Shown one piece after another: positions 17,351 through 51,200 of a stretch of DNA of 64,000 bases. This stretch comes from Cenococcum geophilum (Eukaryota), in NCBI GenBank assembly GCA_050273025.1, contig CP158635.1, forward strand, positions 3,410,001 through 3,474,000. The letters run 5' to 3'. The notes under the pieces are model-generated. The model did not search any database. It was given only the letters and a program-made list of their open reading frames with translations, and was not told where the DNA came from. Each line of letters begins with the position of its first letter. The stretch's first letter is position 1. The translations under genes were made by a program, and so were the position numbers.

Positions 17351-19117
17351 ATTATAGTTTTTCTTTAATCTTCTCTTATAATAATAAAGGCTTTTAGCCT
17401 ATATAACTTTTACCTATACGTCTATCTAAACTAAAGGCAAGAATATGGCGCATAATTCAAGGGAGAACAGAGTTAAACTTAAATAAATCGTTGACCAAAA
17501 GGTTACCTGTTGCGATCGCGTATTTGCGCCAAGCCATATATGCGCGCACGTTCAGGAGTACTGTATTCTTTTCCGGGGGCATAAATTTCTTTATTTGGAT
17601 CATTAGTAGGTGTAGAATATCTTATTTGGCTATGCATTGTATGTGGTTTTAAAAAAGGAGTGTATTGTTTTGATTTTGGCGAGGCAACGACTTTTTCCAC
17701 CGGGCCTCGGCCCGATTAAAGGCCCTGATTACATTCGAAAAGTAATCGTCTAGGGTGCCGCCCCGCCCCTTCGTACGATGCGCGGAGCCGAACTACGCTA
17801 CTGTAGAAGGTATCCACCAATCAGCAAATTGGTGTGTGCAATATACGCAGGCCAACAACACCGAGGACCCGATTGTTGGCCACACAAAAACATACGAAAA
17901 ACTCTGGGGCACCCTCGCCAAGGTTCAGATGAGATGTCGAATTTTCGAATAAACCACCAAAGAAGTTTTTAGTAATGATGTTTCTATTACCCACCCTCTC
18001 CCATAACCGTTGCCGTCGAAGAGTTTCTGGACACAGCCGGTTCGGAGTTATGCATCGAGCTAGTGAGCGTCCTTGAAGGGGACCTAGAGACTCTTCCAAG
18101 GTGAATATTGCCCGGCAATCATTGAATAAGCTACCATTTCGTCCCCTCTGCTAAGGCAAATCGAAGCACATCCTAGACCGAACTGTACCCACCTCAAGCC
18201 AGACGGCCAAGAGAGACGACCCGCCCTTCAGACAACGTTGCCTAAAAGCCACCGCTACCCGTCAGAGTCCGCAAAAGAATGTATATAGAGGTCCGTGTAT
18301 CATCATCTTCTGGTGGATCGGGGCTCGACGCCCGGATCGAAAAGTCGGGATGCACGAAAACCGGAGTGATGGACATGTGGACGCCATTCCGTTGAGACAC
18401 GGAAGGTATGCTCTGATATGAAACTGAAGTTGAAGCTAAATTTAGACCGATGCTGACATGGGTTTTAGATTTATAAGGACTTCGATAGTATAGGTCGTGA
18501 GAAGATCCCCTGACCACTTAGGGCAATGACCAGAAAGGAAAATGAAGTATAACCATGGCAAAACCTACCACGGGCGGTTGAAGAGATAAATCAAACATTC
18601 GGGCGGAGTGGGATTTATTTGAACACTTTAACACAAGAGTAAACGGGGAAAAAGAGCGAAGCACACGAATTCTTCAGTCTGACCATTGTGGAAATAGTTC
18701 TATTGCGAAAAGCATTGGACTGGAGAGAGTTGGAGACCTTTATAAGGTAGGAAAGAGATGTCCTCTTCTTAGTGATGCCCTGAAGAAGGCTAATGCACAA
18801 TAAATTTGGTTGTATAACGAAAGAAAATTAGGATTTAGGGTTTGGCTAGATATAACAGGTACAGGAATGTAAATAGAAACCTGTCTAATGGGATCTGACA
18901 TGGAGAAGTTGAATTTAGCAAAGAGTATTTATCAAAATTCTATTCTTGGAATATTTTGCTTTTCCTATAGATTCAAGGCCTCCAGTTGAATAGTCATACG
19001 TTGGTAAGAACAAGACCACCTCTTTTGCGCAGAAAGGAGGTCCGTTTCATATCTTCGGGTTCTCTTTCTCATTCCAGGTTGAACTCCCCATGGGTATCTC
19101 GCCATACATGCTGGAAC

Positions 19118-22100
19118 TTACCATTGGATTGGCTTTTTGTCCTGCTAGAACAAACCACTACGATCGTTGAGATCTTCTAATGCAAGCGTAACCGGTGTCT
19201 AGGTTCCTTGATCTGGTGTTTTTGATCCACCACCTGGTCACATCTGTCTTTACATATCCCGGACAGCAGGAATTAATTGGAACCTTACTACCTTTTTCCT
19301 TCTCAGCTGTCCCAATAGCTTTTGTCATGCCAACAACTCCTGCTTTGGAGACAGCATAACCAGCACTGGGCCAGCCCTGCTTTTTTTTTCCCCGCCGCAT
19401 CGACGGCGGACTGGAATCGTTCCACCGACTTTGTGATATCCAGGACGGTCTTAAAGGCAAGGAACTGGTCTCGTATCGTGTCTGAATATTTATTAAGCTT
19501 CCCACTCATACTCGCGAAATTGATGACGCGGCCTTTGTTCTTCATCAGTGGGAGAAAATGCTCAGTCGCTTCGAGGGTTCGTAGTAATTGCAACGAAGAG
19601 TTATTTTTACAACATTGGAGTCTATCAAGTGCAAGGGGATTAGCAGCTGCCTAGGTATTTCTCAGATTGACCAAAGTCTAAGGGTATGAAAGGCGATCGC
19701 TCTCATCGAAGCCTTGAATAGCGATGCCAGCGTTGTTGATGTCAAAATCGATCCCCTCCTCATGCGACCTCTTCAGATACTCGGCGAAGTCCTTGATGCT
19801 CCTCGTATCAGCAATGTCTAGCTCATGGACAGAGTTGCTGATAAGCAATTCAGATTATTCGGATTGCTTGCTTGATTGTATTATACAATCAATCTTTAAT
19901 TCAATCTGGAGGGTTTAATTTGGGCAATCAATCTATTAAGGAAGGCTTAGATTAATTGATTAATTGTATATTTTATATATAAATTATATAAGATCTTGGT
20001 AATAGGCTTTTGGTCGGAGGTTTGAGTGTATAGGCGCTAAGCCTGATATAGCAGTTGCTAGGCCTAATTGAATTATTTTTCTGGGCCGAAATTGTATACT
20101 AGGGTCCTCGAATTTGCACTATTCCTAATTTAAACCTTAACACTAGCGTTAAATAATTATTATTTGATACTACTATAATGGCAGAGGAACTGTTATAGGC
20201 TAATATTAACGCGCTAAATGCAGGAAATAGGATTAACGCTGACCTTACCCTCTCCGAAGCTGTTGCTCCCACTGAAACCTTTATTAAGATTAACAGCGAC
20301 TCTAAAGATAACGGGATTAATTGATATAATAGTATTAACTAGAAACGACTACCTAACCTTATAAAGCCTTATTATAGCCTACTATAGACGCCTAGCTAGA
20401 TATATAAGTATAGATATTAGTTATAAAGTAGGGTTAACAATAAGCAAATTATCTTTATTTGTAAGTACTGCTATATTTATAAAATTATTGACTGCGGAGG
20501 CTAAGGCCGGTATAATATTATATAAGCAACTAGTGCTGCTACTGCCCATCTTAGGCAGAATAAGAAGGGCTATGGAGTTAATAAGTACGGTAAGATTATA
20601 CTAGCTATAGAGGCTGGGCAGAGTACTCTTTTAGAGTAAGTTATAAGGAGTGGCTACTATATCTTTTAAGTAGTTACTAACGCTTTAATTGGTGGCTTTA
20701 ATATAGAAGCTTTTAAATAGTTGGCTGTTAATTGGATTATAGAGAATAATTACCCTTTACGCGAATTTAAGACGCCTGCCTTCCGTAAGATGTTATAACT
20801 TACGAATCCTGAGGCTGAGCGGGTTCTATGGAAGAACTATTAAGCCGTTATAGATTTCGTTACAATAGAGTTTAAAGCCTATATTCCATCCGTAAAGGAG
20901 TTCCTCTCTACTATATAGTTACAAATCCACGTATCTTTTAATGGCTGGTTAATACTAAATAGTAGATACGCTCTTACGGGTATATAGGTTTATTACCTTA
21001 ACTATAAAGGCAAGATTCGCGACTATATAATAGCCCTACTAGCCCAACTTGGCCATTACTTTAGAGAGAATTATATGGAGGTTATTAGAAGCGTTCTTAA
21101 TATATTTAATATTATAAAAGAGCGGCTAGGCTATTTTGTTATGGATAATAAATCTAATAATAATACCGTAGTAGAAGGCTTGGCTATTAAGTTTAACTTT
21201 ATTACGGCTTACTATTACGGCCAGTACGCCTATTATATACTTAATCTTATAGCCTAGTAAATTATGTGGTTAAAGGATAAGGACTTATTTAAGAATAATA
21301 AGAATATTCCTGTAAGTAGCCTTAGCCTATTCTTTTACTGCTACTAATTTAGGCTAGGAAGAAGAGAAGTTTCTTATAGAGTGGCGAAAGGAAGGTGCTC
21401 TTGGAGCCCTCTATAATCTTATTATTTTTATTAATATAGCTTAATAGATTAAGCTTTTTAAGTCCTTCTAAATTACACAAAATATTCCTCCTAATTTAAA
21501 CTTTAAGGTTAAGTAACTAGTTAAGCCCGTTAAGACGCGTTAGAATAGTTACTTTAACGCCTTTAAGAGAGCTATAGAACTATAGCCTGCCCTTAATGTA
21601 TATTAAACCTTTAAGATTAATAAGTTTAAGAAGAAGAAGGTAGCGTTTTAATCCTTTATAAGAAGCCGAGGTTAAGAGCTACCGGAAATAAAGGCACGCC
21701 TCTATATTAAAGTTGGCGGAATTACTATATATAATTAGCAAGTCGTAAATAACTACCTTAATATTCTTCGCCCTTTTTATAAGGCTATAAGTATGCTTAA
21801 GGGTAAAGGGAAGGTAGGCTTAAATAGTGCTATTTGGGAGGTTATTTCTACATTTAATTGGCTACTTATAGTTCTTAAAGAATAGAAGGATTGAGTTGCT
21901 AAAGCTATAGAGGAGGACTATCCCGATTAGGAGGCTATAGAAGATTATATTAAGATTAACATTAACGCGGCCTGGTTAAAGTTAAATAAGTATTTTAAAA
22001 AGCTTAACAAGACGCCTATCTACTACGCGGTAGTAATTCTACATCCTTATACTAAGCTCTTCTACGAGAACGCTTAAAAGGATAGGCTAAATTGGCTTAA

Positions 22101-23461
22101 AACGAACGACGCTAATTTTTAAGCTCTGTAGGTAAAATATAAAGCTCTTTTAAATAAGGCTTTAGGCGAAGCTTTAGATAAGCCTACGTTATTAGCTGTT
22201 AAGCCGCCATAAAGAGGCCACGTCTTTATATAGCCCGTGACTTATACGTTAAAGCTAATACTAGTATAGCAGAGGGCCGAGCTAGCGACGATAATGAATA
22301 TAAGACTTAAAAGAAGATTAAGCCACTTAATAAAGACTACCCTCTAGCGTAGGATCCTATTAAGTATTGGTGGTAGCTTTAAACTGAGTATCTACGACTT
22401 AGCCGCATGGCTTTTAATATACTAACTATTCTAGCGGTAAGCACTGACTGCGAGCGAGGATTTAGTGAGTGTGGCGATTTATTAGAAAAGCGTTGATCTA
22501 GGTTACTGCCTGCAATAATTGCTGCTCTTTCATGCAATTGATCTTGGAAGAAGATAGGCTTTAAGAAGGCTGTAGCTGTTCCTACTATACCTGGAGGCTT
22601 AATATTACGCCAAGATCCGAATATATAAGCTCTATAGGCTACTACTAATATATAAGCTAGCGCATAGGTAACTATAGAAGCCGCTTTATAGGCTACTTGC
22701 GCCTTATGAGCTCGTACTATATTATAAGCTCGTGCTTTATCGCGAGCTGCATCGCAGGCTTCCTCTTATAGCTTTTAAGCTGTATTATAAAACTCCTTAT
22801 AAGCCTTATTGCGAGGATTATCACGAATTATACCGGTAACACTATAATCTTCCGGGTAAAACGGACGGTTAGGAGGACGGTTAGCATTACGTTGAAGGAT
22901 ATAATGGATAAACAGTGAAGGAGTGAAGGATTTTGGGCGAATTCGAGGCTATTGGAAGGCAAATTTTAACGCTGCGGCGAAGCGCTGCCAAAAATTTGAT
23001 AAGTCTATATATTAATTAATCAATCTTTAATTAAGCCTCTAAAAAAGCTAACCAATTAATCCTTAATTAAGTCGTGAGTATTGATTTATATAATTAATCA
23101 ATTTCAAGACCTTAAGATTGATTGCTTGCTTATTAGCAACTCTGCTCATAGAACCTGATCCCGGCCAATCCACCATGATGGACAAGGGCCTTGGCCTTCT
23201 GGAGCTGAACATCTTTTTCTAGGTTTTGCAATGCTGCTTCGCCCCTGCCTCTGTCGCGAGCGGTAAGGTATATCAACGGACAGCCGTCATTGGGTGGTGA
23301 CTTTGGGTACTGAAGAGCGAGATTCCGCACTGTGAGAGATTAGAGATTAGAGATGTTAGGGAGAATGCGATGAATCTCATGGCGAGTGGACAAGAGGTAC
23401 CTATGGCCAAGCCAATGCGTTTATTTGCCCCGGCAACAACGCCGACTCTGGAATAGGACAT
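19118..23461 (-). pseudogene. Carbonyl reductase-like short-chain dehydrogenase/reductase (SDR), disrupted
   Basis: MSYSRVGVVAGANKRIGLAI (Rossmann motif), IYLTARDRGRG, INNAGI, GRVINFAS, YAVSK (YxxxK), CCPGYVKTD. Split by hAT 19830-23144; frameshifts (poly-T at ~19381, ~19235) and two TAG stops before the native TAA at 19118-19120. Confidence 0.9.
19830..23144 (+). mobile_element. hAT-superfamily DNA transposon (Restless-like termini), RIP-inactivated
   Basis: TIR CAGAGTTGCTGATAAGCAA / TTGCTTATTAGCAACTCTG; 8-bp TSD CTCATGGA (19822-19829) / CTCATAGA (23145-23152); BED-like FICKYC (~20455), KTR.NS (~21532), hATC motif YWW..EY.RLSRMAF..L.I.A.S.DCERGFS (~22365-22466). Confidence 0.95.
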
Positions 23462-23639
23462 GTCGTTGGAGAAAGCTGGGATGGGAGGAAGCGGCGGGTG
23501 CGCAAGGGAACATGATTTCAGCGCGTGGTGGTGGAGCATTTATTAGGGAAGGGTAATGAAGTCATAAAATCTATGACCGTGGAGCGGCCATGCTGCGCGC
23601 CTGCCACACCCTGCCCATCTCAATGTGCAATGTACTGTA

Positions 23640-23772
23640 CACCCTCTCGTCAACTCCGGTGGTTAACGTGTTTTATTTAACTTTCCCTTAAACAGCAAAA
23701 ATACCAAAACTTCCCCTACAAAAAGGCCGTGCAGACGTGGCTGCGCTAACCACCGGAATTGATAAGAGGGTG
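23640..23772. mobile_element. MITE, Tc1/mariner-type (133 bp)
   Basis: 29-bp TIR CACCCTCTCGTCAACTCCGGTGGTTAACG vs CACCCTCTTATCAATTCCGGTGGTTAGCG; TA on both flanks. Confidence 0.9.
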
Positions 23773-24625
23773 TACACCACCTTGGCGCATCCGGTTGAAA
23801 GCGCGTGTTGATCTTGGTGATCAAACGGCAGAGTTTATACCTTTAAAGTAATGCGCACGGCCATTTAAACATATTTTTACCTTTTTTTTAAGTATAATCT
23901 ACGCATTTTGATTAGCGTGATCACACGCGCTTTCAACCAGATGCGCCAGGGTGGTGTAAGCTTTTTGTTACTGTAATGAAGCTCGGACCCATCTCACAGT
24001 GCAGGCCTGGGACCTGCAGCACAGCACACCTCCCAGGCACGCGGCGGGGTAGCCCCACCTTGAGGTACACACTTCGGACCCGCTGCTGCATACGGTCGAG
24101 AATGCCATTCCTAAGGCCACCGCAAGTCTTAGCCCCGGCGCAATGACCTTCGAAAGGCGGTGCTGCCTGTTTCACCAATTCTGCCTGCAGACTTCGTATG
24201 AATCTAAGAACATTCACTCCTGTATTTTTGGCGCAGTCGTTGCTATTTCGTGTTTCTTTCATTTCTCTTCTGCTACTACGATGCCGAGTGCCTTCAACCG
24301 CCCCGATTCGACTCAAGAAACTGTCTCATATCCGGACATCTAAGCATACGTCGTCTTCCGTTTATTCATTTGGTAGAACATCGAGGGGTCCGGGCGGGCA
24401 AAAGCGGGCAGTAATAACGTAAGTTTAGGGTGGAAAAAAAAAGTTAACCTTAATTTATACTTCATCCCCATGACCACATTCACTGCGAATATTCCTTGTA
24501 AATGGTAGCTGACTTAAATCCAGCCCCACTGCATATTCTGCCTACCATCCACTTCCACCCTGCTTTGACTGGTGACATCCTCTTTACGCCTTCTTTCCAG
24601 TAGCTTTCGATATTCTTCCGCCAAG

Positions 24626-26100
24626 ATGACAACCTGTGTGATCTGCGGCGATGATGAGAAGGAGAATGCTCCATTACGACAAACAGCTTGTAGAGACCAC
24701 TATATGTGTGATTCCTGTCTCGAGCAGACATTTTCTCTTGCCTTGCGCGATGAGTCGCATTACCCCCCTCGATGCTGCGGCGATGAGACCGCCATACTTT
24801 TGGTGGATGATTACATGGAATACCTGCCTGGTAGTTTGGTTTGGGATTATCAGATAAAGGAAATGGAATACAGCACCCATAACAAGTTAGTACATGCACT
24901 GTACCTCGGCCATTGACGAGCATATTAAGAGACGATGATTGCTGATCCAAATGCTCTATAGGTTCCGCATCTACTGCGGCAATCCCTCATGCGCCAGCTT
25001 CATCCACCCAAACAACTACCAAAGTGGCCCGCCGATCACGGCTCCCTGTGACTCCTGCGTCTCCTTGACATGTGTGAGCTGCAAGGCGCTCATTGACTCC
25101 GATGCCGCCGCACATGAATGCATAGTACCAGAAGCAGATATTAAATTCGAGCTTGTCGTCCGTGAGAAGAACTACCAACGCTGCTTTAATTGCGGAGCCA
25201 CCATCGAGCTTTCCGATGCTTGTAACCATATCAGGTACGAAGGCTTTCCATATTTCTGTAGACGCCACCTAATTTAGAGGCATGAGAGGGAGGAATTCGT
25301 CCTGACGGCCTGCTGACTCATGAAACAGCTGTGACTGCGGCACCGAATTCTGTTACATCTGCGGCAGAGAATGGGAAGGTCCCCATGGGTGTCCGTATTA
25401 CTGTCAGCCGGTCTATGACAAGGACGGGTATAACCAAGATGGGTTCCATCGCGAGACGGGGCTAAATCGCGAAGGGAACGGTCGGTTCGACGAGGACGGT
25501 TTCGATGATGAAGGATTCGACAGGGATGGATTCGATCAGGACGGTCGGAATGAAGAAGGTTACGATCGGCAGGGGTTTGGTGAAGATGGGTATGACAGGC
25601 AAGGGTATGATGCTGAGCGCCTTGATAGGGAAGGGATGCCAAGAATGAACGATGACGATAGGGAGATGGCGAGGATTCTGCAACAAATTCAGGATGCTGA
25701 GACTGGGTGGTCACCACCAACAGATGACGAAGGAAGTGAAGAGGATGGAGAAGATGATGAGGAGGATGACGAAGACGATGAAGAAGAAGACGACGAGAGA
25801 GAGGACCGGGAGGAGGATCGGGAAGACGGCGGAGAAGGAGATGACGACAAAGAGCAAGGAAGTAGTAGAGTTGAAGTGGAGCAGGGCAACGAAGGGAATC
25901 AAAGGGAAGGTGATGGTCGAACTACCACGATCGAAAGGATTGATGATACAAAAGCCGGGGTTGATGTTAACATTGTGCGAAACGAATCCATCGTCGAAGA
26001 TGAGAGCCTAAGCTACAACCAACATGACCACATCACTGCTACGGAAGATTCTAGCATTCTACCTAAGGATAGAGATCAGGATGCAATGGAAATCGACTAA
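24626..26100 (+). CDS. RBR (RING-IBR-RING, ariadne-like) E3 ubiquitin ligase with DxDG[YF] repeats and acidic tail; exons 24626-24885, 24962-25234, 25329-26100 (434 aa)
   Basis: RING1 CVIC..C.DHYMCDSC..YPPRCC; IBR RIYCGNPSCASFI..C..C...TCVSCK..HEC; RING2 QRCFNCGATIELSDACNHISCDCGTEFCYICGREW; GT-AG introns join the exons in frame (1305 nt). Confidence 0.92.
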
Positions 26101-26627
26101 GTTGCCATCGCCTAGATCGTAAGGGAAGAAGGAGCTTTCTTCACCAACCTAGCGGGTAGATGCTCTCAAGAATAGCACCCACGTGAAGTTTATTGAGACT
26201 GAGCGGTCTTCATATTTAGACTTTTAGCCTTAGATTGACTACGATCTGGTCGCGGTAATCTAGCATTTTATCAGCTCATGGGGGAAGCTTTTGACACTCA
26301 GGCGCAGTTGGGGCGCAGTTCTTTCGGAGTTTTGGGCTTCTAAGTATTATGTGCGTGAAACTCAATGTCAGTGAAGTGCAAGCAGGCATTTTCTCTTGTT
26401 TAACAGAAGAGTTAGTAATCAAACATGACTTTCTGACAGTGATTTCATTATATTATGCCAAAACACAGTTAGTTCAGAAGACTGGGTCACTATCTCTGAA
26501 GAAGGAATTGTAGGAACCTATAACACATCATTTAGACCATAATCGAACCTCAGTAAACTCAGGTCCCCAATGAGCTCTGATCCCCCTTGGAAAAAAGACC
26601 GTAAGGCAATTTGGGCATATTAGCTAT

Positions 26628-26880
26628 TGTAGCCGACTACCGGTACCAAAGCGTGCACCACCTTATGACTCACCACCCTATTTCTTGACATCATATGTCT
26701 CACTACTTATTTCCATTACCTATTTCCATTACCTATTACCGACTGAGTGACGTTGTCTACAGTGGCAATTATGGATCATCGTCGTCATCTTCTTACTGCC
26801 TACCTCGTGTATATATAGACTTTAGAGCTATATTTACAATTAAGTTGCTCGTTTAATTCCCATACACTGCAAAGTTTACA
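26628..26880. mobile_element. Candidate solo LTR (253 bp), little RIP
   Basis: TGTA...TACA ends; flanks GCTAT / GTTAT (5-bp TSD with one transition); internal TATATATA. Confidence 0.55.
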
Positions 26881-27019
26881 GTTATGGACAAGTGACTTCT
26901 GCAATTGCTCTTGGCCCATCCAACCTCATTAAGGCATCACCCTTGGCTAACTCTACGGCATATTATACCCTAGAGCTAATATATATAGTACAGCCAGAAG
27001 GCCTACGTAACCTAGGGGG

Positions 27020-39123: not shown

Positions 39124-39315
39124 ATAAGGTATATAATAATAAAAATACTAGCGATTATATAACCGTTATCTTAATAGCGAATTAAGCTTAAAAGTGTAAA
39201 ATTTTAAATTAAAATCTATACTAATTATAAGGCCCTAAAGTATTTTGTAATAATAAAATAACTTACTAAATAATAGGCCTAGTAGGCTAAAGTACTCTCT
39301 TAGTTCTTCTTTACG

Positions 39316-42300
39316 GATACCCCCTAAGAGTAACAAAAGGAGCTCTTGCTGCACCCGGCCCAAAAAGACTAAAACTAACCAAAAAAACCCTGCAAAACAC
39401 CCAGAGAATCCCCCTAAGATGCATGCATCGCAGGGAAGGCATACGTTAAACGACGGTAGTTCGCACTCGCGCGCGACCGCCAGAACTACGCCTAATAATA
39501 GCCCTCTATAACAAAGACGGGCAAATGCCACACTATAAAGCGGAAATACCTTTATTAAGAAGGCATCTAATAAAATATAAAGCCTATTAGACGCGTTTAG
39601 TACCCAGAATTGCGGGGAAGTAACCATTAGCTATAACGATCTAACGCAGCTAGCAGAATGGCTCCGCCAGTCTAGCGAACCTTAGGCGCCCCTTTAGTAA
39701 ACCCTTAATTAAATCCTCTAATGGCTAAGTAAAATTAAAAATAAATAAAACCCCCCCTTACTGGCGAACCGCACTTAGGCCGCCGTAGCTGCGCTTCCAT
39801 AGCATAGGGAACTTACCCCCCTTAAAATAATAACTAGGTATATAATTATAATACGATTAAATATAGAAAAAGCAGAGGGGCTTAGGGAATAATTAGAAAT
39901 AGAAATCCTTATAGAAATCCGCAAAGAGGTTTATAACGCTGTTATAGTCTAACACCTTAGGAGCGGAGACATTAGAGTCACCCTAAAGAACCAATAGGTA
40001 AAGGAACGAGCCGTAAGGGTAGGGGATAGGCTAGGAGAACGTATTGGTATAAAAGTACTCCGCGAGAATGTAACGTGGCCCGCCTCCACGTCGCCATACG
40101 GCCAAAAAGACTAAGAGTGCTTGCGAACTTGTCGCAAGCGCGGCGGGACCTAATATATATACTCTTACAATTGCCCTCTCCTCTACGCGCTCGTCCTCAA
40201 GCGCTCGCAGGGATTCCTCTATACGCCCGTTCGCGCCACAGGGATTAAACGCCAAGAGTATCACCATATTAGTTAGTCCCTAGTAACATAAGCGATTAAA
40301 ATCTTTACCGACGCCTTATCGCACGGATATGCGTTAAACTGTACTAGAGCGAAGTAACTAATAGGGATTAAACCCACAATACCTGGCCCTAGTAAGTTCG
40401 CAAGCACAATTGTAACGTGGCCCGCCTCCACGTCGCCATACAGCCAAAAAGACTAAGAGTGCTTACGAACTTGTCGCAAGCGCGGCGGGACCTAATATAT
40501 ATACTCTTACAGAGAATTACCCAGTCAAAGTCCTAGCGGTCCCCATAAGCCTTAGGGTAGAAAAGGGACGCTAGGCGGATAATATAGCAATTATATAGGA
40601 GATAGTAAGATAAACGGAACGCCTTATATTAGGACTTAAGATCACCCGAATCTAATAGCTTTAATAGGAAAATGTAAATTAAGTAAATAACGAGAATAAT
40701 AAGAGGATATAAGGGTCGCTAAAGACCCGCTAGGGAGACGCTAAACGAACACATGGCTCCCTTATCGTTAGCATATATACACCAGGAATGCAAAAACTCC
40801 TTATCTAAAAAGGAATAATTATAAACGGCCTTATATACAACATAAGGCTCTACAACTACAGACTATGCCTAAAACGATGCTATCGCTACGTATAATGGGG
40901 ACATACCTAATCCACATACGCAGCACAGGTGTGCTGCGGCTACTGTGTAGGCCCCTACAATATAAGACACTACTTAAATTAAGACTAAATAAAATACGTA
41001 AACTGCCACCAAAGCATATATAAGGCGTAGGAGAGAGAAGACTGCATTAAATACAGGAGATAGAAGGTAAGGGCTTAACAGCTACGGGAATAACTATACG
41101 CGAGGTTATATAAATAAAAACAACAGGCGATAAGCTAGGGGAGCGCAGGTGCCTTTCTATCGTTTCCTACCTTTAACACTGGGGGGCTAGGCCAGCCATC
41201 CCAAGCCTTAACGGGCCAGAAGCAACGCCGCGTAATATCACTAGACCGTATAGGGATATAAGGATTACAGGGGATACAAGGGAGAGGACGCCCTATAGGA
41301 AGACCCTTATAGACAGCTATAGTAAGCTTAAAACTAGGATAATTAAGAATTAGACTTAACGCGGTAAATATAACATTCGTAGCTAACTCTTAAAGGGCGT
41401 ATAGCTAACTAGTAAGAATAGGGGAAGAACCGGAGATAATAACAGATTTAGATATAAAAGCGCTAGTAGAAATATAAGACACGGGAATAGAAAGCTCTAT
41501 ACAAAATAAGTAGTAACTAGGGTGTAGACATAAGAGATAGAAGTTCTAAATATCCTAGAGAAAGTAGAAATAGAAGAAGTGAGGAATAATAGAGAGGCGA
41601 AGGACCCTTACTAGGGGTCCGCCACCTATTTATTATACAGTATAACTATAGCAACACAAACCACCGTCTTATAAGGCCCCTACTAGACAGCCTAGACCCA
41701 GAGAAATACTATATCCTTGCTATATAAGAGCCATACTATAACACCTACACACAATCGACATACTGCCCCTAAAGATTCTAGCTCCTATATAAACCAAAAG
41801 CAGCCACACGCGTATGCTTTATAATTAGTAAGACTATCAGCCTATCCTTATAGTCATAGCAGGCAGTTAATCTAGATATTATAGTTATAACAATCTAGAC
41901 ATATAGAGGACCGGTATAAATTATTAATATATATAACCCTAGGGTTAAAGGGGTCCTATAAACAGAGAATATTATATTAGTAATAAGCTTACTCAAAACC
42001 AAAGGCATAAAGTCTATCCTATTAGGAGACATAAACCTCCACCACCCGCGGTAAGGGGGTATTTATATCGCTGCTAAACGACAGGCAGAGTGCCTACTAA
42101 AAGCTATAGACACCTGGGGCCTTAAGCTAGCCACCCCCCCTAGAGCAATTATATAGCAATAAGGATCCGCCAAAAGTACAATTAACCTTATATTTATAGA
42201 CGAAGGCCTATACTAGAGACTTAAAAGGTGCAACCCTAAAGAAAAATGGGCACTTACTTTAGACTATATCCCCATCCAGATACAGCTAGATTTGGATATT

Positions 42301-45300
42301 AAGGCGTAACTAAATAGCAAAAGATATGCAATAAGGATGCTTAAGGTAGACAGCTTCCTTAATACAGTTAAACAACAACTCTAAGACCTAGAAGAAATCT
42401 ACCCGATACTAAACAAGCGAGGCTTATTAGCTACCCCTAAGGAAATCGACTAAAGACTAGAAAGGATCTAGGCAGCGATTAAAAACGGGTTAGAAGAGTA
42501 CTGCCCGGTCTTAAAACCGGGCCCCTATACGCAACACGTATAGTCCGCATAATGCGCGGTTTTTATAGCTAGCTAACAATAAGCAAAAAGGAAATACTTA
42601 AGTAGCTACAACCCTAAAAATAAGAGACGATACAAAGACACAAGAAACCAGTTAAAGAATACCCTAAAAAAAGAAGCAAGAAACAACTAGAGACAATTTA
42701 TAAATAAGTATACTTTTAACCTAAGCCTCCCCTATAACAAGGGCCTATAGGCTATAGCAAAATAGGTAAAGAAAAAGGCAGGGCAACTAGCAGAAGACCT
42801 ATACCTACTACCCCTACGAAGAGCAGGGGAATTATAGGCTACTAACAATAATAATAAGAAGGCAAAGATCCTTATAGAAAGGTTCTTCCCCTAACCGGCT
42901 TTAGCAGACCTTAGTAACATCACAGGTAAAACACCAGTAACTCGCCTGCGGGTTAACAGCGACATAACAACAGAGGAAATAGCCAGAACTATTAGCCGCC
43001 TTTTAAATAATATAGTACTAGGACTAAATAGGATTCTAAATAAGGCCCTAAAGACCTATAGACCACTTATAGCACCCTAGCTTACAGATATAGCTAGAGC
43101 ATACTTTACTATAGGCTACTACCCACAACTTAGAAGATCTATAACGATAGTTATCTTATAAAAAGAAGGTAAAGCAGATTACTTAATCCTAGGAAGCTAC
43201 CGCCCTATTGCCTTAGAAAACACCCTAAGCAAGATCTTAGAAAAGGTAATAGCGGACCGTATAGTAGATACGGCTAAGGAACACGCCCTACTACCATAGA
43301 GCTAAATAGGGGCAAGAAAGAACCGCTCAACACTATTAGCACTTACGCTACTCGCTACCACTATCAAATCCGCATAGGCGATACGAAGGGACTTTATAGT
43401 ATTAATGCTTAGCCTAAATATCAGTGGCGCCTATAACAACGTACCCCACAAGCGTCTCCTATATATCCTTAGGGCAAAAGGCTTCCCAGAATAGATTATA
43501 TAATTTATTTAAGGGTTTACAGGTTAGAAAGAAATATTACTAGTTTTTAGCGGATACTAGAGCCCCCCTATTATAGTTATAATAGGAATACCACAAGGAT
43601 CACCCCTCTCGCCTATACTCTTCCTTTTCTTTATAAGCAACCTACTTAACTCCTTTAAAAAAGGGGTAACCTAGGGGATAGGCTTCGTTAATAATATAAA
43701 CCTAATTATATACGGGCTAACAGCCGCAGAGAATTGCAGAATACTAAAGAAAGCTTATAACACCTATATAAAATAGGCAAGACGACATAAAGTCTAATTC
43801 TCACCAGAGAAATACCAGCTAATCTATTTTATAAGAAAACGCAACCAATCTGCAGATCTCTAGTATATAATTCGCATCTAAGGCTTTAGGGGTCAACTAG
43901 TTTAGGGCCTAAGGGTATTAGGAGTATAGGTAGACAGCAAGCTCTAGTAGAGCGCACATACGGCGTAAGCGGCCTATAAGGGCCAAGCATAGTACATCGC
44001 ATTATCTAGGATCGTTAATTCTATATAGGGTCCATGCTTCTAGAGGTCACGCCTACTATATACAGCAGTTGTCTAGCCAACTATAACGTATAGGTCCAGT
44101 ATTTGGGCCATTAGAGAATCTAAGAAAGGCCCCCCTAAGTCGCTCCTTAAACCACTCTAAAAGGTCTAAACAGCCTGCTTCCGGAGTATAATAGGCGCAT
44201 ATAAGCGAACGGCCACAGCACTGCTCGAGAAGGAAGCCAATATTCCCCCCCTACAACTATATATTAAAGCCGCTGTAATATAAAGGGCGCAAAATAAATA
44301 TAACTCTAATGTTATAAAGTATATTAAGACACGCCTAAATAAACTATGGAGGGACCCTAGGGCGCCCTATAGGAGAATAAACTAATAACCCTAAAGTAGG
44401 GAAGATATATTAGAGAAACAAGTAAAGAAAGCAGAAGAAGAATAGTGCTGCTTTAGGGCCTAGGCCTATATAGAGGAGGAAGGGAGACGCACAAGAGGCC
44501 AGTAAAGATAATAGTAAAAGAGAGAAAGAAGCTAAAGCAAAGCACAAAAGAATGCCAGGAAACCATCTACTGTAATATAATACTGGTTGGACTAACGCTA
44601 GAGAGGTATATAGGAGTTAAAGGTATAGAGGCTAACTAAAGCAAGAGGAACCCAAGCCGTAGTATAGTTAACGCTATAGGGGGTAAATACTCTAGGGCTC
44701 CAAGAAGGCCTAATAAAGGCAGAAAATATAATAGCAATACTCTTAAGAATAGGAATAATAGGACTAAAAGACTGGCTCTACTAGGTGGGTGTCCTAGTAG
44801 GTAACCTAAGATGCGAATATGGCTGGCTAAGACAGACACTAAAACACGTAATACTATTATGCCCCTTACGTACTAACTAAGAAGTAATACTCTTAGTAGC
44901 TAGCACAGAGAACTATAATACACTGCTCTTAATATAAAAAGGCCTTAAGGCGGTTACCTAGTGGCTTATTAGCTAAAATATACTAAACTAGTTCTAGGTT
45001 GCTAGGGAAATAGTAATAGAGGGTAGGGGGGGCGAGCAACGGGCGCCCCCTAATAACTCTACAGTAGTAGAGTAAAGTATGCGATACTAGCGCGTCCGTA
45101 GGCTTGTTACGGCAGCAGTAGTTCCTAAGGAGGTTAAAAAGTAAGGTAGTAGGAGCACCACAGGTGACTTATAGGCGCCCCGCAGGCGCCTTATAGGCGA
45201 GTCCTAAAAGGCAGGGAGATAGATTACGGGGTTTTCTCAAATAGAGTTTTCTCCCCACATATATATAAGGAGTAGTCCGCGTGGGCCCAATAGGGATCTA

Positions 45301-45332
45301 AATCGGACGTTAAGCAATAAATAAATAATTAA
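39316..45332 (+). mobile_element. Full-length Tad1-like LINE, family 1 copy a (RIP-inactivated)
   Basis: TSD TTAGTTCTTCTTTACG (39300-39315 / 45333-45348). ORF1 from ~39420 with Cys knuckles at ~40870-41030. ORF2 APE (LQYN ~41634, LAI.EP, GD.NLHHP ~42026), RT (SYRPIALENTLSK ~43195, GIPQGSPLSP ~43584, GFVDD-like ~43681), CCHC (~44812). AATA tail. Confidence 0.95.
40069..40511 (-). mobile_element. TRIM (terminal-repeat retrotransposon in miniature), 443 bp
   Basis: 101-bp LTRs 40069-40169 and 40411-40511 (TGTAA...TTACA); TSD GAGAA; PPT (AGAGGAGAGGGCAAT on minus) next to the left LTR; empty site present in LINE copy b (~59433-59460). Confidence 0.95.
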
Positions 45333-47076
45333 TTAGTTCTTCTTTACGATTATATATTATTCTAGTAAGTAAGACTCTAAGGCTAATGCGTTAGCCCGAA
45401 GGGAATAAGATATAGGACCCTAAGATAAGCTAGCGCCCCGTTACTATTATTAAGGACTTTTATCTAATATAAAACTATTTATTAAAAACTATTACGCTTA
45501 TAGGCGTGTAAATACCCATAGGGATTAAACACCTAAGTAGTTATAACAACTACTAGTCCTAGAACGCCCTTAGTAATATATTATAATAATTTTTAAGTCG
45601 TTTTTAAAGGATATCCACGGCTATAATATAGCCTTTATAGTAGTTAACCGACTAAGTAAATAAATATTACCTCCTTATTTTAAAACTATAACTATAAAGG
45701 ATATAGCCTATATATACGTTAATAATAGTTACTAAAGCTACGGAGCTCCTAAATTAATTATCTCCGACTATAGACCTTAGTTTATATCAAATTTCTAAAA
45801 TAAACTCTACCGTATCCTTAGGATTAAGATTAAACTCTCTACTAGATTCTACCTTTACACTAACGGCTAAACTAAGATTATAGACTACTATTAGAATAAT
45901 TAATTAGAATTACTACCTATAATAGACTACGCGTAGCTTATATTTCTCTATAATAGTATAGGGATATTAATATTTAAACTACTCTATAAATACCTACTAT
46001 AAACGCCCTTTAATTAGGATAGGCCTACTAAATCCATTATAGCACTTAAACGCCTTAGCTTTAAAGAGGCCTAAATAATTATTAAGAGAATATATAAAGC
46101 CTAGGAGACTACTTAAATAATAAAGAATCCAATATAAAGTAGACTTTAAAGTAAGAGGTAAGATATAGGTATTAATAAAGAACTAGAAAACTTAAGGGTC
46201 AAGCTATAAGCTAAACTACTAAATAGTCAGCCTATATAAGATTCTCTAAGAGATAAAATACTCTCTTAGGATTAAGCTACTAGAATTAATAAAGATCTAC
46301 CCTATTTTCTCCTTAGATCGACTATATAAAGCCATAGATAACCTATTACCTAGGCAGTATAACGACTCCCTACTACTAATCTATATTATAAAAGACGGGG
46401 AATAGGAAATTAAAGAAGTCCTAGTAGTTAAAAAGGACTATAATACTTTAAAGTACCGTATAAGCTAGGTAGGCTATAATAAAGACCTAGAATAATATTC
46501 TATATCTAACTTTAAATACTTTCCCTATAAGCTATAAGGTTTCTATTTAGCCTACCTAAACCTTTTTAAATTACTATATAAGTTAGAAAACTAGATTAAA
46601 TACTAGAAAGAGGCGATAGATAATTATAATAATTAAGATAATAATAAAGAGCTTAGAAAACGCCTAAAGATAGGCTTTTTTAGAAGGAAGGGGTAATATA
46701 ACGGCGCTAAGGTATATTACCGCATATTGCCGTATTTGTTATAGCTTATATAAATGCCTTTAAACCAAAGCTTATAGAATGCTATATTACGAAGGTACTA
46801 AGCTAAAGAAAAGGAAAAGGGGTTACTAGAACCGATGTAAACAAATATATAGGGTAAGCCGCTAAGGCGCTAGCTTTAGGCGGGCTAATTATAGGTCGGC
46901 AGAATATAGTAGAATTTAGCAGGTAATATGCGGTAGCGCCGTTATATTACCCTTCTTTAAAAGAAAGCCTACCCTTAGGCTTAGTTAGAAATAGGGTAGT
47001 ACTAGGCTTATAAATATAGGATTATAAAATATAAGATAAGGAGATAAAGGGGATATAAGTATATTTAGATTAAGTA

Positions 47077-48064
47077 GTAGTAGATTCTTTAATTAATGTC
47101 TAATACAGATCCTATCTAGGCCTATATAGACTACTCCATATATAAGGGAAAAGTAATATTAACGGGAAAAAACCCTATGAGCCACCTTAGTAGGATAAAA
47201 AACCCCGTTTTGCTATGCCTGCATATAGCAGCGGCCCTATAGGCCTACAGCTACGTCCTCCTCCTTAGATGTTTTAAACTCCTTAGGAACCACTACTTCC
47301 TTCTCTAGCTTATTTAGAGCTAGGGTTCACTACGTCCTAGCTAGGCCTTGCCGATTAATTGCTGTATATAGTTATATCCCGTATCTTAACCACCCCCTAT
47401 ATACTATCTCTTATTAACCATTACTATATACGCCTTACCTCCCCCCCCCTAAGGCCTATTAAAGGCGTAAGGGGGATTTATCTATTCTACTATCCTAATA
47501 CTAAAAGACAAAAGCGGGATATGTGTGTATATATATCTGGGTATCTTTTATACCTAGGCCCTAGTCACTAGGCCCTCTCTAAGGGCACCACTCCGTTAAG
47601 AGGAGATAGGGAAAACCGTACGGGGTTATCCAGCTGCCTTTTAGTAGTATTACGGTAGTACGGTAAGTGACCGTATGCTCCGCGGGCGATCGCCCTAAGG
47701 GTTAGAAGGGGCCGTATATTTACTTATTCGTTTATTTACACTTATCTATTTATTAATATAAGGTCGTTAATGCTTTCCATTAGGGTTTTTAGGGATGTTA
47801 TTAAAAACTACTTATCTATGTTGGATTGTACAGGTGCCCTAGATAGAATAGTGTAGTAGTTATCGTATTGTAGAGGGCTAATAGTAATGGTTTTTAAGAT
47901 CTCACCATCCGAAAATTTTTTACCACCGCCTTTAACGCTTACAACCACCACCAGGTCCTGTCCGCACGCTATATAACGTCTCTACATTAGCTCTAGATCT
48001 AAACTTTAAAGACTAGGTTTATAGCCGTCACCATATATAGGTGCAGAGTCCGATTTTAACGGCC
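47077..48064 (-). mobile_element. Non-autonomous LINE-dependent retroposon (SINE/SIDE-like, 988 bp) with a 5' HDV-like ribozyme
   Basis: 13-bp TSD TTTAGATTAAGTA (47064-47076 / 48065-48077). Minus-strand 3' end TATATGGAGTAGTCTATATAGGCCTAGATAGGATCTGTATTAGACATTAA resembles the LINE-1a 3' end (TATAAGGAGTAGTCCGCGTGGGCCCAATAGGGATCTAAATCGGACGTTAA). (CTA)n tail; no RT motifs seen. Confidence 0.8.
47980..48064 (-). ncRNA. HDV-like self-cleaving ribozyme (RIP-damaged)
   Basis: P1 GGCCGTT / GACGGCT (G1-U wobble); P2 CTCTGC / GTAGAG; P3 ACC / GGT; L3 TATATAT (RIP of TACACGT); P1.1 AT (RIP of GT); P4 hairpin; J4/2 GCTAAT; G1 is the first base of the insertion. Confidence 0.75.
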
Positions 48065-48230
48065 TTTAGATTAAGTATAAAGGGTAATTATAGGCTAAGT
48101 AGAAGCACTAGGCTAGAAAGAGTAGCTACTAAAAGTCTTAGCACGGATTTAACTAATTAGATAACTTTAACCGGCGGTTAAAGTTCCTAGATATCTGAAA
48201 TTTTATAGTACTAGCAGAAAACGGTAGAAA

Positions 48231-51200
48231 TGTAACGGAACCTTATAGCAAGAACTACAATAGGCTTATTATTAGGCTAGGTATATAGGAAATGCAAGTA
48301 TAAAAGTCGATAACAAATAATAACTGGTGGAGTGGTTGCCTAACAGATTAACTCCAATTATATTCTAAGAATTACTATAAGGAAGGAACTATCTAGGTAG
48401 GGACTAAGGGTCCTTAAATACATAACCGTACTTCTAAGAAATCCTTTTTATACGTAATATACGTGCGCTTTATCTACTCTATCGCGGATTATGTAGATCC
48501 TATAAATTATATAGATTACCTTATATAACCTTAGTTACTATTCCTTATTATATAGTTCTATCGGCTCCATCCTAGACCGTGCTTAAATTAACTAACTAGC
48601 TTCTTCCGACTCCTTTCCTAGTAGTTATAACATCGTACTTAAAGCGTCCGTAATACCATCTCCCTCCTCTCTATCTTTATCCTTAAAGATTTTTAATATC
48701 TCTAAGTTGTTTACTAGAGGTATAATATCCGTCTAATTAATTTGGTTAATATTATTACTTATTATACCTAAAGCAATTTCTTCTTCCTTAACTACTCGTT
48801 ATATTCGCACTATTACTATAATATTATCCCTTAGTGAGATTATGCTGTCTCTATATTCTTATTATTTAAAAGAGGGGTTAGTTTATATTACGTTAGCGAA
48901 CCCATCTTTATAATAACTATTCTCTTACTTAAAGTGCACTAAAGCAAATATTTATTTATTCTGCGACGTTTGCTCTATCTCTAATGCTAAATATACATAA
49001 CCTATTACTTTTAATAGTCGTCTAGTTCCCTAATTAATTTGTCTTAGGGTCTTATATTTAATCTGCTGCTACGCAGCTAGATAATAAACTATCTGTTACT
49101 CTAGCGAAGTTACGCCGTTCTCGTAACGCGGAATAAGAGGCTGCTAAAGCTTAGCAAAAAGCCCTTAACTCCCGTCTTGCGGCGTCCGCTTAGTTAATCC
49201 GTCTTAAAAAGGTTTATAAGAAGGTTTATTTTAAGGAGTAGAAACTTATAGAATAGGGTCTATAGGAACTTAGTAATAAAAGAACAGATTCTCTTTTAAT
49301 AGAAAAGGAAACAGATCTAAGTAGTTCGGCAACTACTCTTCTTAGGTCCCTCTTAGGTGACTCATTCTTTAGCGATCCTTTTTTATTAATACTACCTAAC
49401 CTAATCTCTTCTAATACTCCTATACCTTTCCTATAGCGTTCTTTAAATTTTCTAGTAGCTCCTAGGTAGTCTTAGTGTAGCCTATCCACTTAACCTTATA
49501 CCATATTTTATTGTTAATGTCCTTATAACTAACGATCTTTAAAACTTGCTATTTGTCTTCTTTTTATCCTCTATACATATCTGCTTTATAAACTAGTAGC
49601 TTAATATTCCTGTATACTAGCTCTAGCATTATAATATACTATATAGGGTAGATCTTTATTTTAGCTAGTAGGTTTAACTTAAACGTAACTGGTAAAATCC
49701 TTTATATAATTTTAAAAGGTCCTAGTCTAACATAGTCTAACTTCTTACTTAGTCATTAACTCTTGAAATTTTTGTATAGTAGCTATACTTTATCTCCTTC
49801 CTTAAGATCTAGTCCCTTAGATCTTTTAGCGTTATAGTACCTTTTTATTCTCTCTTATACTTTCCTTATTAATTCTATAAGGTCTATATAAAGATTTATC
49901 AACGTCTTTATTCTTTCTTTAGCTATACTACTCGTTTTTTTTACTTGCCGTAGTAACAACAATGTTCTTAGCTTATATCTATAATTTGCCTTAAATAGTA
50001 ATATACCTATTCCTTCTTAAGGTATTGCATTATATACAAACTATATAACTAGTAATAATAATACCCAATTATTCTATGCGTGATTAATATAGTGTTTTAG
50101 ATACTGCTCTAGTATCTAATTTAATCTTTCTATTTAACTATCTGTCTGCGGATAATATACGGTAGAAGTTGCTACTCTAACTCCTTACTCCGCTAAGAAT
50201 ACCTCCTAGAATGCTGCTATAAATCTTAGATCTCTATCCAATATAATCTTACTTAGTGCTCTATATTTTATAAACACTTCCTTAATATAAATTCTAGCGA
50301 TATTTTCTGCTAATATTTCTTCTATACACGCTATAAAGTATCCCTACTTTATAAGCTTATCTACTATTACTAAGATCGCGTTATAATCTTATCTAGTAAT
50401 AGGATCTCTTAACTTTAGTAACTTAATAATAAAGTCCCATAATATGACCTCCTATAGTCTCCCTAGTATTTTAACAGGTTATAGCCCTCTATATAGCTTA
50501 TACCTTATTAGTTTATTCCTTTAGCAATCTAGATATTCTTTTATAACTTTTTACGCTAGTTCCTAGATTCTATTAATAATATACTCCTTTTAGAGTCTTA
50601 ATACTAAGCCTCTGGCTCTATTATATCCTTAAGTTAATCCCTTATAGAAATCTTCTATAAATTGCTCTACTATGCTTCTTAGGATATACTTTACTTCTCG
50701 ATTTTTATATATATCCGTCTATAGATCTTCTAGCTATGCTTTTAGAATTTTCTATACCTAAAAGCTTCCTAGTATCTCGTAGACTCTGTCTAGTTCTTCT
50801 TAAGTTGCTATAATTTTCGGATAATTATATCTAATTAATCCGTCTATATCTTTTCGTAGTAAAGCCCCTAATGGCTTCTCGTTATTTTATAGTTTAGCTT
50901 TTTAACTTAGAGCGTTTACCCTTATATTATCTGTACCCTTAGTATACTAAATCTTAAAATGGTATTCTATAAGTATTTCTGCCCATCTAACCTATCTTTA
51001 GTTAAGTTCCTTTATTATTAGGAATCCTGTTAGGTTCTTATAATCTATCTTAACTATAAATAGTTTCTCTATACCTTGTAAGAATGCTCTCTATTCCTTT
51101 AATGCTATAACTATACCTAATAACTCCTTATTGTAAATGTTATAGTTTAACTCTAGTAGTGTTATTTTCCGACTATAATATACTACTGGATGCTATCTAT

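Follow-up and report, generated by a model that had tools for sequence, protein, structure and literature searches.

A stretch of 64,000 nucleotides from the genome of the fungus Cenococcum geophilum (contig CP158635.1, positions 3,410,001 to 3,474,000 of the forward strand; hereafter the window) contains a single copy of a ~1.0-kb non-coding element, inserted on the minus strand from position 48064 down to position 47077. We consider it probable that this insertion is a ribozyme-headed retroposon of the hepatitis delta virus (HDV)-like type, non-autonomous and dependent on a long interspersed nuclear element (LINE), represented here by a copy inactivated by repeat-induced point mutation (RIP). 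The element would be built of three modules: an 85-nt HDV-like head, a unique body of ~680 nt and a 3′ module of ~250 nt derived from a LINE with an apurinic/apyrimidinic endonuclease (APE) and a reverse transcriptase (RT). The predicted scissile bond lies directly 5′ of G1, the first base of the element.

The insertion measures 988 bp and lies between two perfect 13-bp copies of tacttaatctaaa. On the minus strand its boundaries read ...ctttatacttaatctaaa immediately followed by GGCCGTT..., and ...aatctactac immediately followed by tacttaatctaaatat... A sequence-only reading of the window had reported the insertion, its target-site duplication (TSD) and an HDV-like parse of its first 85 nt. 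All three are literally present: the two duplicates agree at 13/13 positions, and G1 is position 48064, the first base after the duplication. The element was also said to lack an RT, and we found no open reading frame (ORF) of more than 70 codons in the element region and no conserved ORF among eight low-RIP copies of the family described below. The surroundings of the element are AT-rich (GC 0.29-0.39). Its features in the window are as follows.

47077..48064, minus strand: whole element, a RIP-mutated copy of a ~1.0-kb non-autonomous retroposon family
48065..48077, minus strand: TSD, 5′ copy, tacttaatctaaa, 13/13 match to the 3′ copy
47980..48064, minus strand: predicted HDV-like ribozyme head, element positions 1-85, with the predicted cleavage site between 48065 and 48064
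47301..47979, minus strand: unique non-coding body, ~680 nt, without LINE similarity and without a conserved ORF
47077..47300, minus strand: LINE-derived 3′ module, ~225 nt in the window copy and ~250 nt in the consensus
47098..47131, minus strand: 3′ terminal stem-loop common to element and LINE, RIP-degraded in the window copy
47077..47083, minus strand: short (CTA/TAC)n tail, in which the number of TAC units varies among copies
47064..47076, minus strand: TSD, 3′ copy, tacttaatctaaa

The element belongs to a dispersed family with a common 5′ end

The family was sampled by scanning metagenome contigs with a 23-nt pattern that covers element positions 67-89 and carries Y at C/T sites. The scan returned at least 122 loci, and the locus counts, the consensus and the descriptor counts given throughout refer to the matches listed from it. 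All but three of these 122 copies (119) can be aligned with the window element starting at its position 1 or 2; the exceptions are a copy at a contig end and two copies whose alignment starts at positions 9 and 40. The 30 nt upstream of the 119 listed copies form 118 unrelated groups. The start GGCCGTC is carried by 96/119 copies, and the rest differ from it by transitions, except two copies of one locus that start with T. Fifty-one of the listed copies are full-length (979-1024 bp), and every one of them is colinear with the window copy in a single alignment running from position 1-2 to at least 970, so that the junction between body and tail is fixed and the whole unit has been amplified. 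An exact TSD of at least 6 bp flanks 45 of these 51 copies, mostly 13-15 bp and up to 20 bp long. Most of them end in ...GTTAC(TAC)n, of which the (CTA)n of the window copy is another register; an ending in ...GACGTTAAGCAATGAAT(AAT)n or a similar sequence is seen in five. The common 5′ boundary and the TSDs of variable length that the sequence-only reading had anticipated were thus both found; the GGCCGTC start that it had predicted holds for most copies, and the remainder depart from it mostly by transitions.

Nine copies have alignments that stop early. Four of them, L028 included, are interrupted by repeats that also occur elsewhere, two (L015 and L060) run into other sequence, and the remaining three stop 20-119 nt from the end of the available contig DNA. 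L028 has lost no more than its last ~45 nt in this way. A diverged subfamily (L057, L080 and L092) is ~70-72% identical to the window copy, and in L041 the element is present twice, in opposite orientations. At the 51 full-length loci most TSDs start with TA, directly after a tail ending in ...TAC, and the base preceding G1 is A or T at 103 of 118 distinct sites. To judge from these sequences, both features fit nicking of A/T-rich targets and microhomology between a putative (UAC)n tail and the target.

Four Logan runs (X1, X5, X7 and X22) were compared with positions 46700-48450 of the window at a likeness of at least 80%. This stretch of 1,751 nt, repeated flanks included, was matched by 18,827 contigs in X1, 8,841 in X5 and 7,647 in X7. 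In the soil run X7, depth reached 3,307-46,622 in all bins between 47054 and 48056, against 2.4 and 948 in the two outer bins. Seven X1 contigs join 47049-47076 to 48067-48093 and skip 1,006-1,035 nt; they represent paralogues of the host repeat without the insertion, and the element is therefore not a fixed part of that repeat. This possibility, which the sequence-only reading had raised against itself, is further countered by the unrelated contexts in which the copies lie. In X1, X5 and X7 the DNA depth is ~3x higher over the 3′ two-thirds of the element than over its 5′ third, which would fit many 5′-truncated copies or reads from LINE tails. Overall, the family is a high-copy, dispersed, non-coding and LINE-dependent retroposon.

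The window insertion is a mutated copy

Compared with the family consensus, the window copy shows 48 C>T and 43 G>A changes (91 together), against 11 reverse transitions and 10 transversions. Going from the window copy to the X1 contigs, the change is A>G at 83 places and T>C at 74, any transversion accounting for at most 8; this overwhelming excess shows that the mutations lie in the window copy. Judged by this spectrum, its mutation pattern is RIP-type. The C>T and G>A changes fall about equally in CpG (40) and CpA/TpG (41) contexts, which indicates a mutational process not confined to the CpA context that is typical of Neurospora-type RIP. The window insertion is a dead, RIP-inactivated copy of an abundant transcribed family. 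As for the rest of the window, a GC-richer island at 17000-27000 (0.41-0.52) holds its only ORFs of at least 150 codons (24480-26100), and the sequence outside this island (GC 0.20-0.40) looks like RIP-degraded repeats.

The consensus head has the parts of an HDV-like ribozyme

HDV-like ribozymes are described as nested double pseudoknots that cleave at the first nucleotide of P1 and have a short J1/2 (PMC4908430, PMC3185411), with a P1 of 6-7 bp, a P2 of ~7 bp, a P3 of 3 bp and a P1.1 of 1-2 bp (PMC4908430, PMC3185411). The head of the element fits this description, with P1 of 7, P2 of 6, P3 of 3 and P1.1 of 2 bp and a J1/2 of 9 nt. Its parts are listed with their coordinates in the window copy (minus strand throughout), followed by the element positions and letters of a consensus made from 120 heads.

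P1 5′ strand: 48058-48064; element 1-7, GGCCGTC
J1/2: 48049-48057; element 8-16, GAAATCGGA, 9 nt
P2 5′ strand: 48043-48048; element 17-22, CTCTGC
P3 5′ strand: 48040-48042; element 23-25, ACC
L3: 48033-48039; element 26-32, TGTACGT
P3 3′ strand: 48030-48032; element 33-35, GGT
P1 3′ strand: 48023-48029; element 36-42, GACGGCT
P1.1 3′ strand: 48021-48022, pairing with 48037-48038; element 43-44, AC
P4 region: 47992-48020; element 45-73, GAAC and then the P4 hairpin
J4/2: 47986-47991, putative catalytic C at 47990; element 74-79, GCCAAC
P2 3′ strand: 47980-47985; element 80-85, GCAGAG

The helices of the window copy still pair: GGCCGTT/GACGGCT gives a P1 of 7 pairs (2 wobble), CTCTGC/GTAGAG a P2 of 6 (1 wobble) and ACC/GGT a P3, and J4/2 reads G-C-T-A-A-T. 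In its L3, however mutated elsewhere, G31 has turned into A, so that the head of this particular copy is expected to be weak or dead. In the consensus, 18/18 core pairs are standard. P1 has 7 pairs, with a G1·U42 wobble at the end of the predicted cleavage site that involves the first base of the element; a G·U wobble at the cleavage site is known for HDV-like ribozymes. P2 has 6 Watson-Crick pairs and P3 has 3, and P1.1 is formed by the AC that follows P1 with letters 2-3 of L3 (G27-C44 and U28-A43). J4/2 reads G-C75-C-A77-A78-C, that is, C75 followed by C-A-A. In HDV, L3 carries a U at position 1 (U20) and a G at position 6 (G25), and A77/A78 follow the catalytic C75; the consensus head shows these letters, U first and G sixth in L3 and A77/A78 after C75, at what we take to be the equivalent places. 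P4 occurs in three forms, in each of which the helix is kept: CCTGG-TCT...AGATCCAG, a longer CCTGGGTC...GGATCCAG and an 11-nt-shorter CCTGGATCTTATCCAG. L057, L080 and L092 naturally lack 11 nt at the tip of P4, which reduces it to a perfect hairpin of 6 bp and a loop of 3 nt, the other parts of the head being unchanged.

The sequence-only reading had taken the deviations of the window copy from the canonical fold for RIP-type transitions, and the consensus does restore perfect pairing in P1, P1.1, P2 and P3. Of the letters that it expected, the GCAGAG of the 3′ strand of P2 (P2′) and the GGCCGTC start were recovered; L3 proved to be TGTACGT and not TACACGT (5/7 letters agree), and the P1.1 strand AC and not GT.

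Descriptor matches and conservation of the head

We wrote the fold as a strict descriptor (P1 with G1·U as its only wobble, P2 of 6 Watson-Crick pairs, P3 of 3, P1.1 at L3 positions 2-3 and C-N-R-A before P2′) and as a loose one. The strict descriptor matched 59 of the 116 testable copies among the matches listed, and it matched nothing in the controls, namely 1.54 million dinucleotide-shuffled window positions and 1.54 million uniform random positions (0 in 3.07 million in total). The loose descriptor matched 80/116 of these copies; the 36 copies that it missed carry for the most part C>T or G>A changes, and some differ in other ways (L002 by a G>T, L007/L087 by a T at position 1). In the window, the loose descriptor gave 10 matches per 128,000 positions, one of them at G1 = 48064, and in the shuffled window it gave 131 per 1.54 million positions (~8.5 per 100,000). 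Since the rate in the window is that of the background, the window copy alone is suggestive only because its match falls on the first base after the duplication.

Standard pairs occupy 95.9% of 2,271 pair cells in alignment A1, a share that falls to 29-40% once the 3′ strands are displaced by 1-3 columns, and G1·U42 is present in 84/91 distinct rows. Identity to the main consensus in six copies of the diverged subfamily is 92.7-100% for each of the first two 50-nt bins. Leaving aside the deletion at the P4 tip, five of these copies have no transversions in these bins and L092 has 3; over the next 250 nt identity is 65-88%, with 0-8 transversions per 50 nt. Such conservation of the head between subfamilies would fit selection on the head in the master copies.

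The 3′ module is shared with a LINE that lacks the head

The window contains a LINE whose 3′ end resembles that of the element.

39316..45332, plus strand: putative partner LINE, RIP-degraded, 6,017 bp, with an (AATA)n tail
~41917-42228, plus strand: LINE endonuclease
~43174-43848, plus strand: LINE RT
39300-39315 and 45333-45348: LINE 16-bp TSD, ttagttcttctttacg

Frame 1 of this LINE, read through with X at 166 stops, matched Exo_endo_phos_2 (E 2.9e-6) and RVT_1 (E 2.3e-19), which makes it a LINE of the APE type. These two were the domains detected, and the Tad1-clade label that the sequence-only reading gave to the mobilising RT is a putative one. In a transition-tolerant local alignment, consensus positions ~770-1025 scored 108 against LINE positions 5790-6017, compared with 42.8 ± 3.8 in 30 shuffles, and the motifs shared by the two are visible by eye. 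This bears out the 3′ resemblance that the sequence-only reading had noticed, together with the (CTA)n tail. Consensus positions 1-760 scored 54.5 against the LINE, below the highest shuffle score of 59, which gives no sign of similarity. The LINE copies in L013 and L027 end in ...GACGTTAAG(C/T)AATGAATTA(TTA)n, and the minor subfamily of the element ends nearly alike. The last ~40 nt before the tail form the same two-tier stem-loop in element and LINE. Where unmutated copies of the element have GUCUG/CAGAC as outer stem, the LINE has GUCCG/CGGAC; this exchange of U-A for C-G is compensatory and suggests that the stem-loop may be the structure recognised by the RT. The LINE counterpart of the stem-loop lies at 45268-45308 (plus strand) of the window, and the structure was compared in L001, L014, L027, L035 and L049. 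In L020 the element is nested in a copy of the same LINE family, whose positions ~4135-4161 are duplicated around the insertion.

As the sequence-only reading had stated, the head is absent from the neighbouring LINE: at the LINE 5′ end in the window, neither a descriptor match nor any resemblance to the head was seen. L017 contains a second copy of the LINE, whose start lies within ~20 nt of that of the window LINE and which has other first bases and no head. Among the at least 122 loci, none has the head followed by coding sequence; at the loci that bear it, what follows is the 1-kb element or a nested insertion. No autonomous element carrying the head was found in the ~270 kb of sequence from this genome or its relatives that the analysis covered. 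The autonomous LINE with the same ends that the sequence-only reading called for was thus found as regards the 3′ end (LINE 5790-6017), and among the loci listed none supplies the head. We found no second ribozyme-like family in 414,994 locus positions, in which 30 unrelated descriptor sites occurred against ~35 expected. The absence of a tRNA or 5S head is likewise upheld, as ARAGORN found 0 tRNA genes in 4 loci and Rfam gave no tRNA, 5S or 7SL similarity of the head in the window copy or in ten loci. From the shared 3′ end, this particular LINE would be a candidate supplier of the machinery that mobilises the element.

The family is transcribed from intact copies

Raw RNA reads of run X22 (species label B, a related strain) were placed on the window copy. 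Depth rose to 4,503 (bin 47880-47938) for pairs with the first mate on the plus strand, against 38 for the other orientation, and in the plus orientation it was 10 in the bin beyond the 5′ end and 0 beyond the 3′ end. Strand-specific RNA is confined to the element. At variable sites the reads carry the unmutated letter almost without exception (for example 938/938 at 48034, 933/938 at 48038, 910/912 at 48020 and 908/912 at 48021) and therefore come from intact copies elsewhere. For 88% of the placed reads, the sequence continues with letters that differ from the window copy; the two loose-end consensuses examined, at 47970 and 47845, show this element in its unmutated form. RNA depth peaks over the 5′ third, whereas DNA depth is higher over the 3′ two-thirds of the element; the contrast may reflect 5′-truncated DNA copies together with stable 5′ RNA fragments or better alignability.

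Proposed mechanism and alternative explanations

In the mechanism that we propose, a master copy would be transcribed either from a promoter of its own or within a read-through transcript, and the head would then cleave itself from the upstream RNA, leaving an RNA that starts exactly at G1 with a 5′-OH. The LINE machinery would bind the common 3′ module, whose terminal stem-loop and short repeat tail are presumably recognised by the LINE RT, nick an A/T-rich target and reverse-transcribe up to the 5′ end of the RNA. The new copy would start with G1 and be flanked by duplications mostly of 13-15 bp. We infer self-scission at G1, release from read-through transcripts and promoter independence. 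That the family is an active, high-copy fungal parasite of the short interspersed nuclear element (SINE) type, needing no promoter of its own, that a head absent from the LINE excises it from any transcript running through it, and that the 3′ stem-loop of the LINE then gives it access to the RT, is a proposal that we hold with moderate confidence.

Several observations weigh against a self-cleaving head. Rfam returned no match of any family to the head at E ≤ 10, HDV-type families included, either in the window copy or in ten loci, five of which are the least-mutated full-length copies; Rfam 15 presumably contains the HDV-type families. Five weak Rfam matches elsewhere in these loci (E 3.8-9.5) were treated as chance. 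The nested minimum free energy (MFE) fold of the consensus head shows no gain in stability over shuffles (z = +0.95), nested folding being uninformative for a pseudoknot; the z-scores obtained were +0.95, -0.07, +1.11 and -0.85. This nested fold favours a hairpin at positions 30-45 that competes with P1 and P3, and the partial canonical structures reach -17.3 (P1+P3+P4) and -15.6 (P2+P3+P4) against an MFE of -23.8 kcal/mol, all of these being energies of nested structures. Covariation is essentially absent, with 4 pair changes on both sides against a shuffle mean of 3.9, in a test that has too little divergence to work on and is confounded by RIP; the double changes seen (G-C to A-U) are of a kind that RIP alone can make. 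As positions 67-89 were fixed by the scan pattern, the invariance of C75, A77, A78 and P2′ among loci exists by construction. In 86 copies the loose descriptor is also satisfied by a register displaced by one base, in which P1 begins at G2, so the descriptor alone does not single out the cleavage site; G1 is favoured over G2 as the putative site by the element boundary and by the G1·U42 wobble. In the window this shifted register starts at 48063 (G2) and has a P1 of G2-G8 with U35-C41, a P3 of CAC/GUG and a P2 of 5 bp. Among the X22 molecules, 407/939 end at 48052, which is 12 nt inside G1 (position 13, not 1); a 5′ end at G1 or close to it would agree with this pile-up, which does not separate processing from initiation, clipping or library end-loss. 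The mate orientation described above indicates sense-strand RNA of the element in most stranded libraries, and the strand convention of the X22 library is not on record.

A sharp common 5′ end is equally the product of an internal promoter. The family could start at G1 as transcripts do in classical SINEs or at the Pr77 of L1Tc, with a non-catalytic fold that serves as a structural or protein-binding module or survives as a relic. Both the precision of the end and the abundance of sense RNA confined to the element are what such a promoter would equally yield, and the unmatched Rfam HDV-type models and the unremarkable energy of the nested fold speak for it as well; in L1Tc, promoter start and ribozyme site coincide, so that the two are not mutually exclusive (PMC3185411). 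We nonetheless consider a promoter alone unlikely, given that the head has all the sequence-level features of the catalytic fold (including the G·U wobble and C-N-A-A), a combination absent from 3.07 million control positions, that no tRNA, 5S or 7SL similarity points to an RNA polymerase III (Pol III) promoter, and that the head is kept between subfamilies with diverged bodies. Quite improbable, in our view, are repeated chimeric retrocopies of the MINE (WEIRD-MGL) type, in which the LINE RT would jump to an abundant host non-coding RNA that starts at G1. Such chimeras, as seen in Magnaporthe, resemble the family in their abundant RNA, their non-coding 5′ portion and their LINE-derived 3′ portion, but independent jumps give variable junctions and LINE lengths, whereas all 51 full-length copies are colinear here; a template jump could still have been the origin of the family. 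That the HDV-like fold is a chance match in a young repeat family is hardly credible. The background of the loose descriptor in shuffled sequence, its 30 unrelated matches in the locus positions and the scarcity of covariation would suit such a coincidence; the lack of any strict match in the controls, the position of the match exactly on the first base of the element and the 18/18 standard core pairs would not. A head that cleaves at G1 remains for us the probable explanation of the common 5′ end. The observation made in the sequence-only reading is confirmed and its interpretation as a SINE-like, ribozyme-headed element supported; of the four refuting conditions that it named, three were examined and none came true.

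Relation to known ribozyme-headed and chimeric retroposons

Ribozyme-headed retroposons occur in insects and other metazoans (R2, RTE, baggins and the short internally deleted elements, SIDEs) and in trypanosomes (L1Tc/NARTc), and hammerheads are found in plants and schistosomes. In NARTc and L1Tc of Trypanosoma cruzi, the first ~77 nt (Pr77, or L1TcRz) are an HDV-like ribozyme that cleaves at +1 in vitro, and this head has been proposed to release the element from long transcripts (PMC3185411). Like NARTc, the family described here is a dispersed, non-coding, non-autonomous non-LTR (long terminal repeat) element with an HDV-like head, in our case recognised from sequence alone. Unlike NARTc, whose head is almost identical to that of its partner L1Tc, it has a partner-like LINE without the head, and it further differs by its RIP-active fungal host and by its length of ~1 kb, with a 680-nt unique body.

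In Drosophila, R2 SIDEs and R2/R1 hybrid SIDEs join a 5′ HDV-like ribozyme to a LINE 3′ end (PMC3414825). In the hybrids, ribozyme and 3′ end come from different LINEs and the 14-bp TSDs are those of the LINE that gives the tail, which is of the stringent type and recognises its own 3′ untranslated region (PMC3414825). The present family is likewise short and non-autonomous and combines an HDV-like head with a LINE 3′ end. SIDEs are rare, occupy specific sites in the ribosomal DNA and are co-transcribed with rRNA, whereas this family is dispersed over at least 118 sites at high copy; also unlike SIDEs, no LINE that could have donated the ribozyme was found among the loci listed. The sharing of the head with an autonomous partner LINE, by which NARTc and R2 SIDEs are recognised, was seen neither at the 5′ end of the window LINE nor at that of the L017 copy.

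Among fungal elements, the closest in layout is MINE (WEIRD-MGL) of Magnaporthe, a 1.1-kb, highly expressed non-coding RNA described only as fused to 5′-truncated LINE copies (PMC2104539); it is flanked by repeats of 10-20 bp, and the Mg-SINE of the same fungus mimics the 3′ end of its LINE (PMC2104539). Both MINE and the present family are fungal and unite an abundant non-coding RNA part with a LINE 3′ end between direct repeats. The junctions of MINE vary and have been ascribed to template switching, and no ribozyme figures in the account cited (PMC2104539), whereas the present family has a fixed junction and a 5′ end that agrees with an HDV-like fold. Classical fungal SINEs, which are tRNA- or 5S-derived, are also short, non-coding, LINE-dependent and TSD-flanked (PMC5063351); the present family differs from them in having no tRNA, 5S or 7SL head and in its length of ~1 kb.

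As a structure, the head resembles HDV, CPEB3 and the drz-type ribozymes in its nested double pseudoknot, its short J1/2 and a core made of L3 and J4/2 (PMC4908430). It departs from the HDV, CPEB3 and drz families by the lack of sequence or covariance-model similarity detectable via Rfam and by a P1.1 composed of G-C and U-A. Ribozyme-bearing LINEs and SINEs have been placed in metazoans, or in plants and metazoans, in the accounts consulted (PMC6765202, PMC13725137). Our literature search, whose scope did not extend to the primary surveys of HDV-like ribozymes, found no HDV-like ribozyme on a fungal retroposon.

Significance

The design of the element is already known from NARTc/L1Tc, R2 SIDEs and hybrid SIDEs. 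The present family differs by its occurrence in a fungal host with RIP-type mutation, dispersed and at high copy, in an element of ~1 kb with a 680-nt body and a head absent from the LINE that accounts for its tail; the lack of a Pol III-type head and of any match to the Rfam HDV-type models are further differences. If our interpretation is true, it would be the first case among fungi of an HDV-like ribozyme linked to retrotransposition, and a fungal family with abundant RNA and more than 100 sampled copies would extend the mechanism to a third eukaryotic kingdom. It would also demonstrate that a dispersed and successful family can unite a ribozyme head with the tail of a LINE in which no such head occurs, and it would offer a candidate explanation for fungal elements made of a non-coding RNA and a LINE tail, such as WEIRD/MINE of Magnaporthe. 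The head would be a compact natural HDV-like sequence of 85 nt, with a naturally varying P4, that is easily assayed. For C. geophilum itself, a common fungus of soil and roots, the family would provide a marker for annotating the large and otherwise unclassified repeat fraction of the genome, and it illustrates that RIP-degraded copies can still lead to function once their unmutated relatives have been retrieved.

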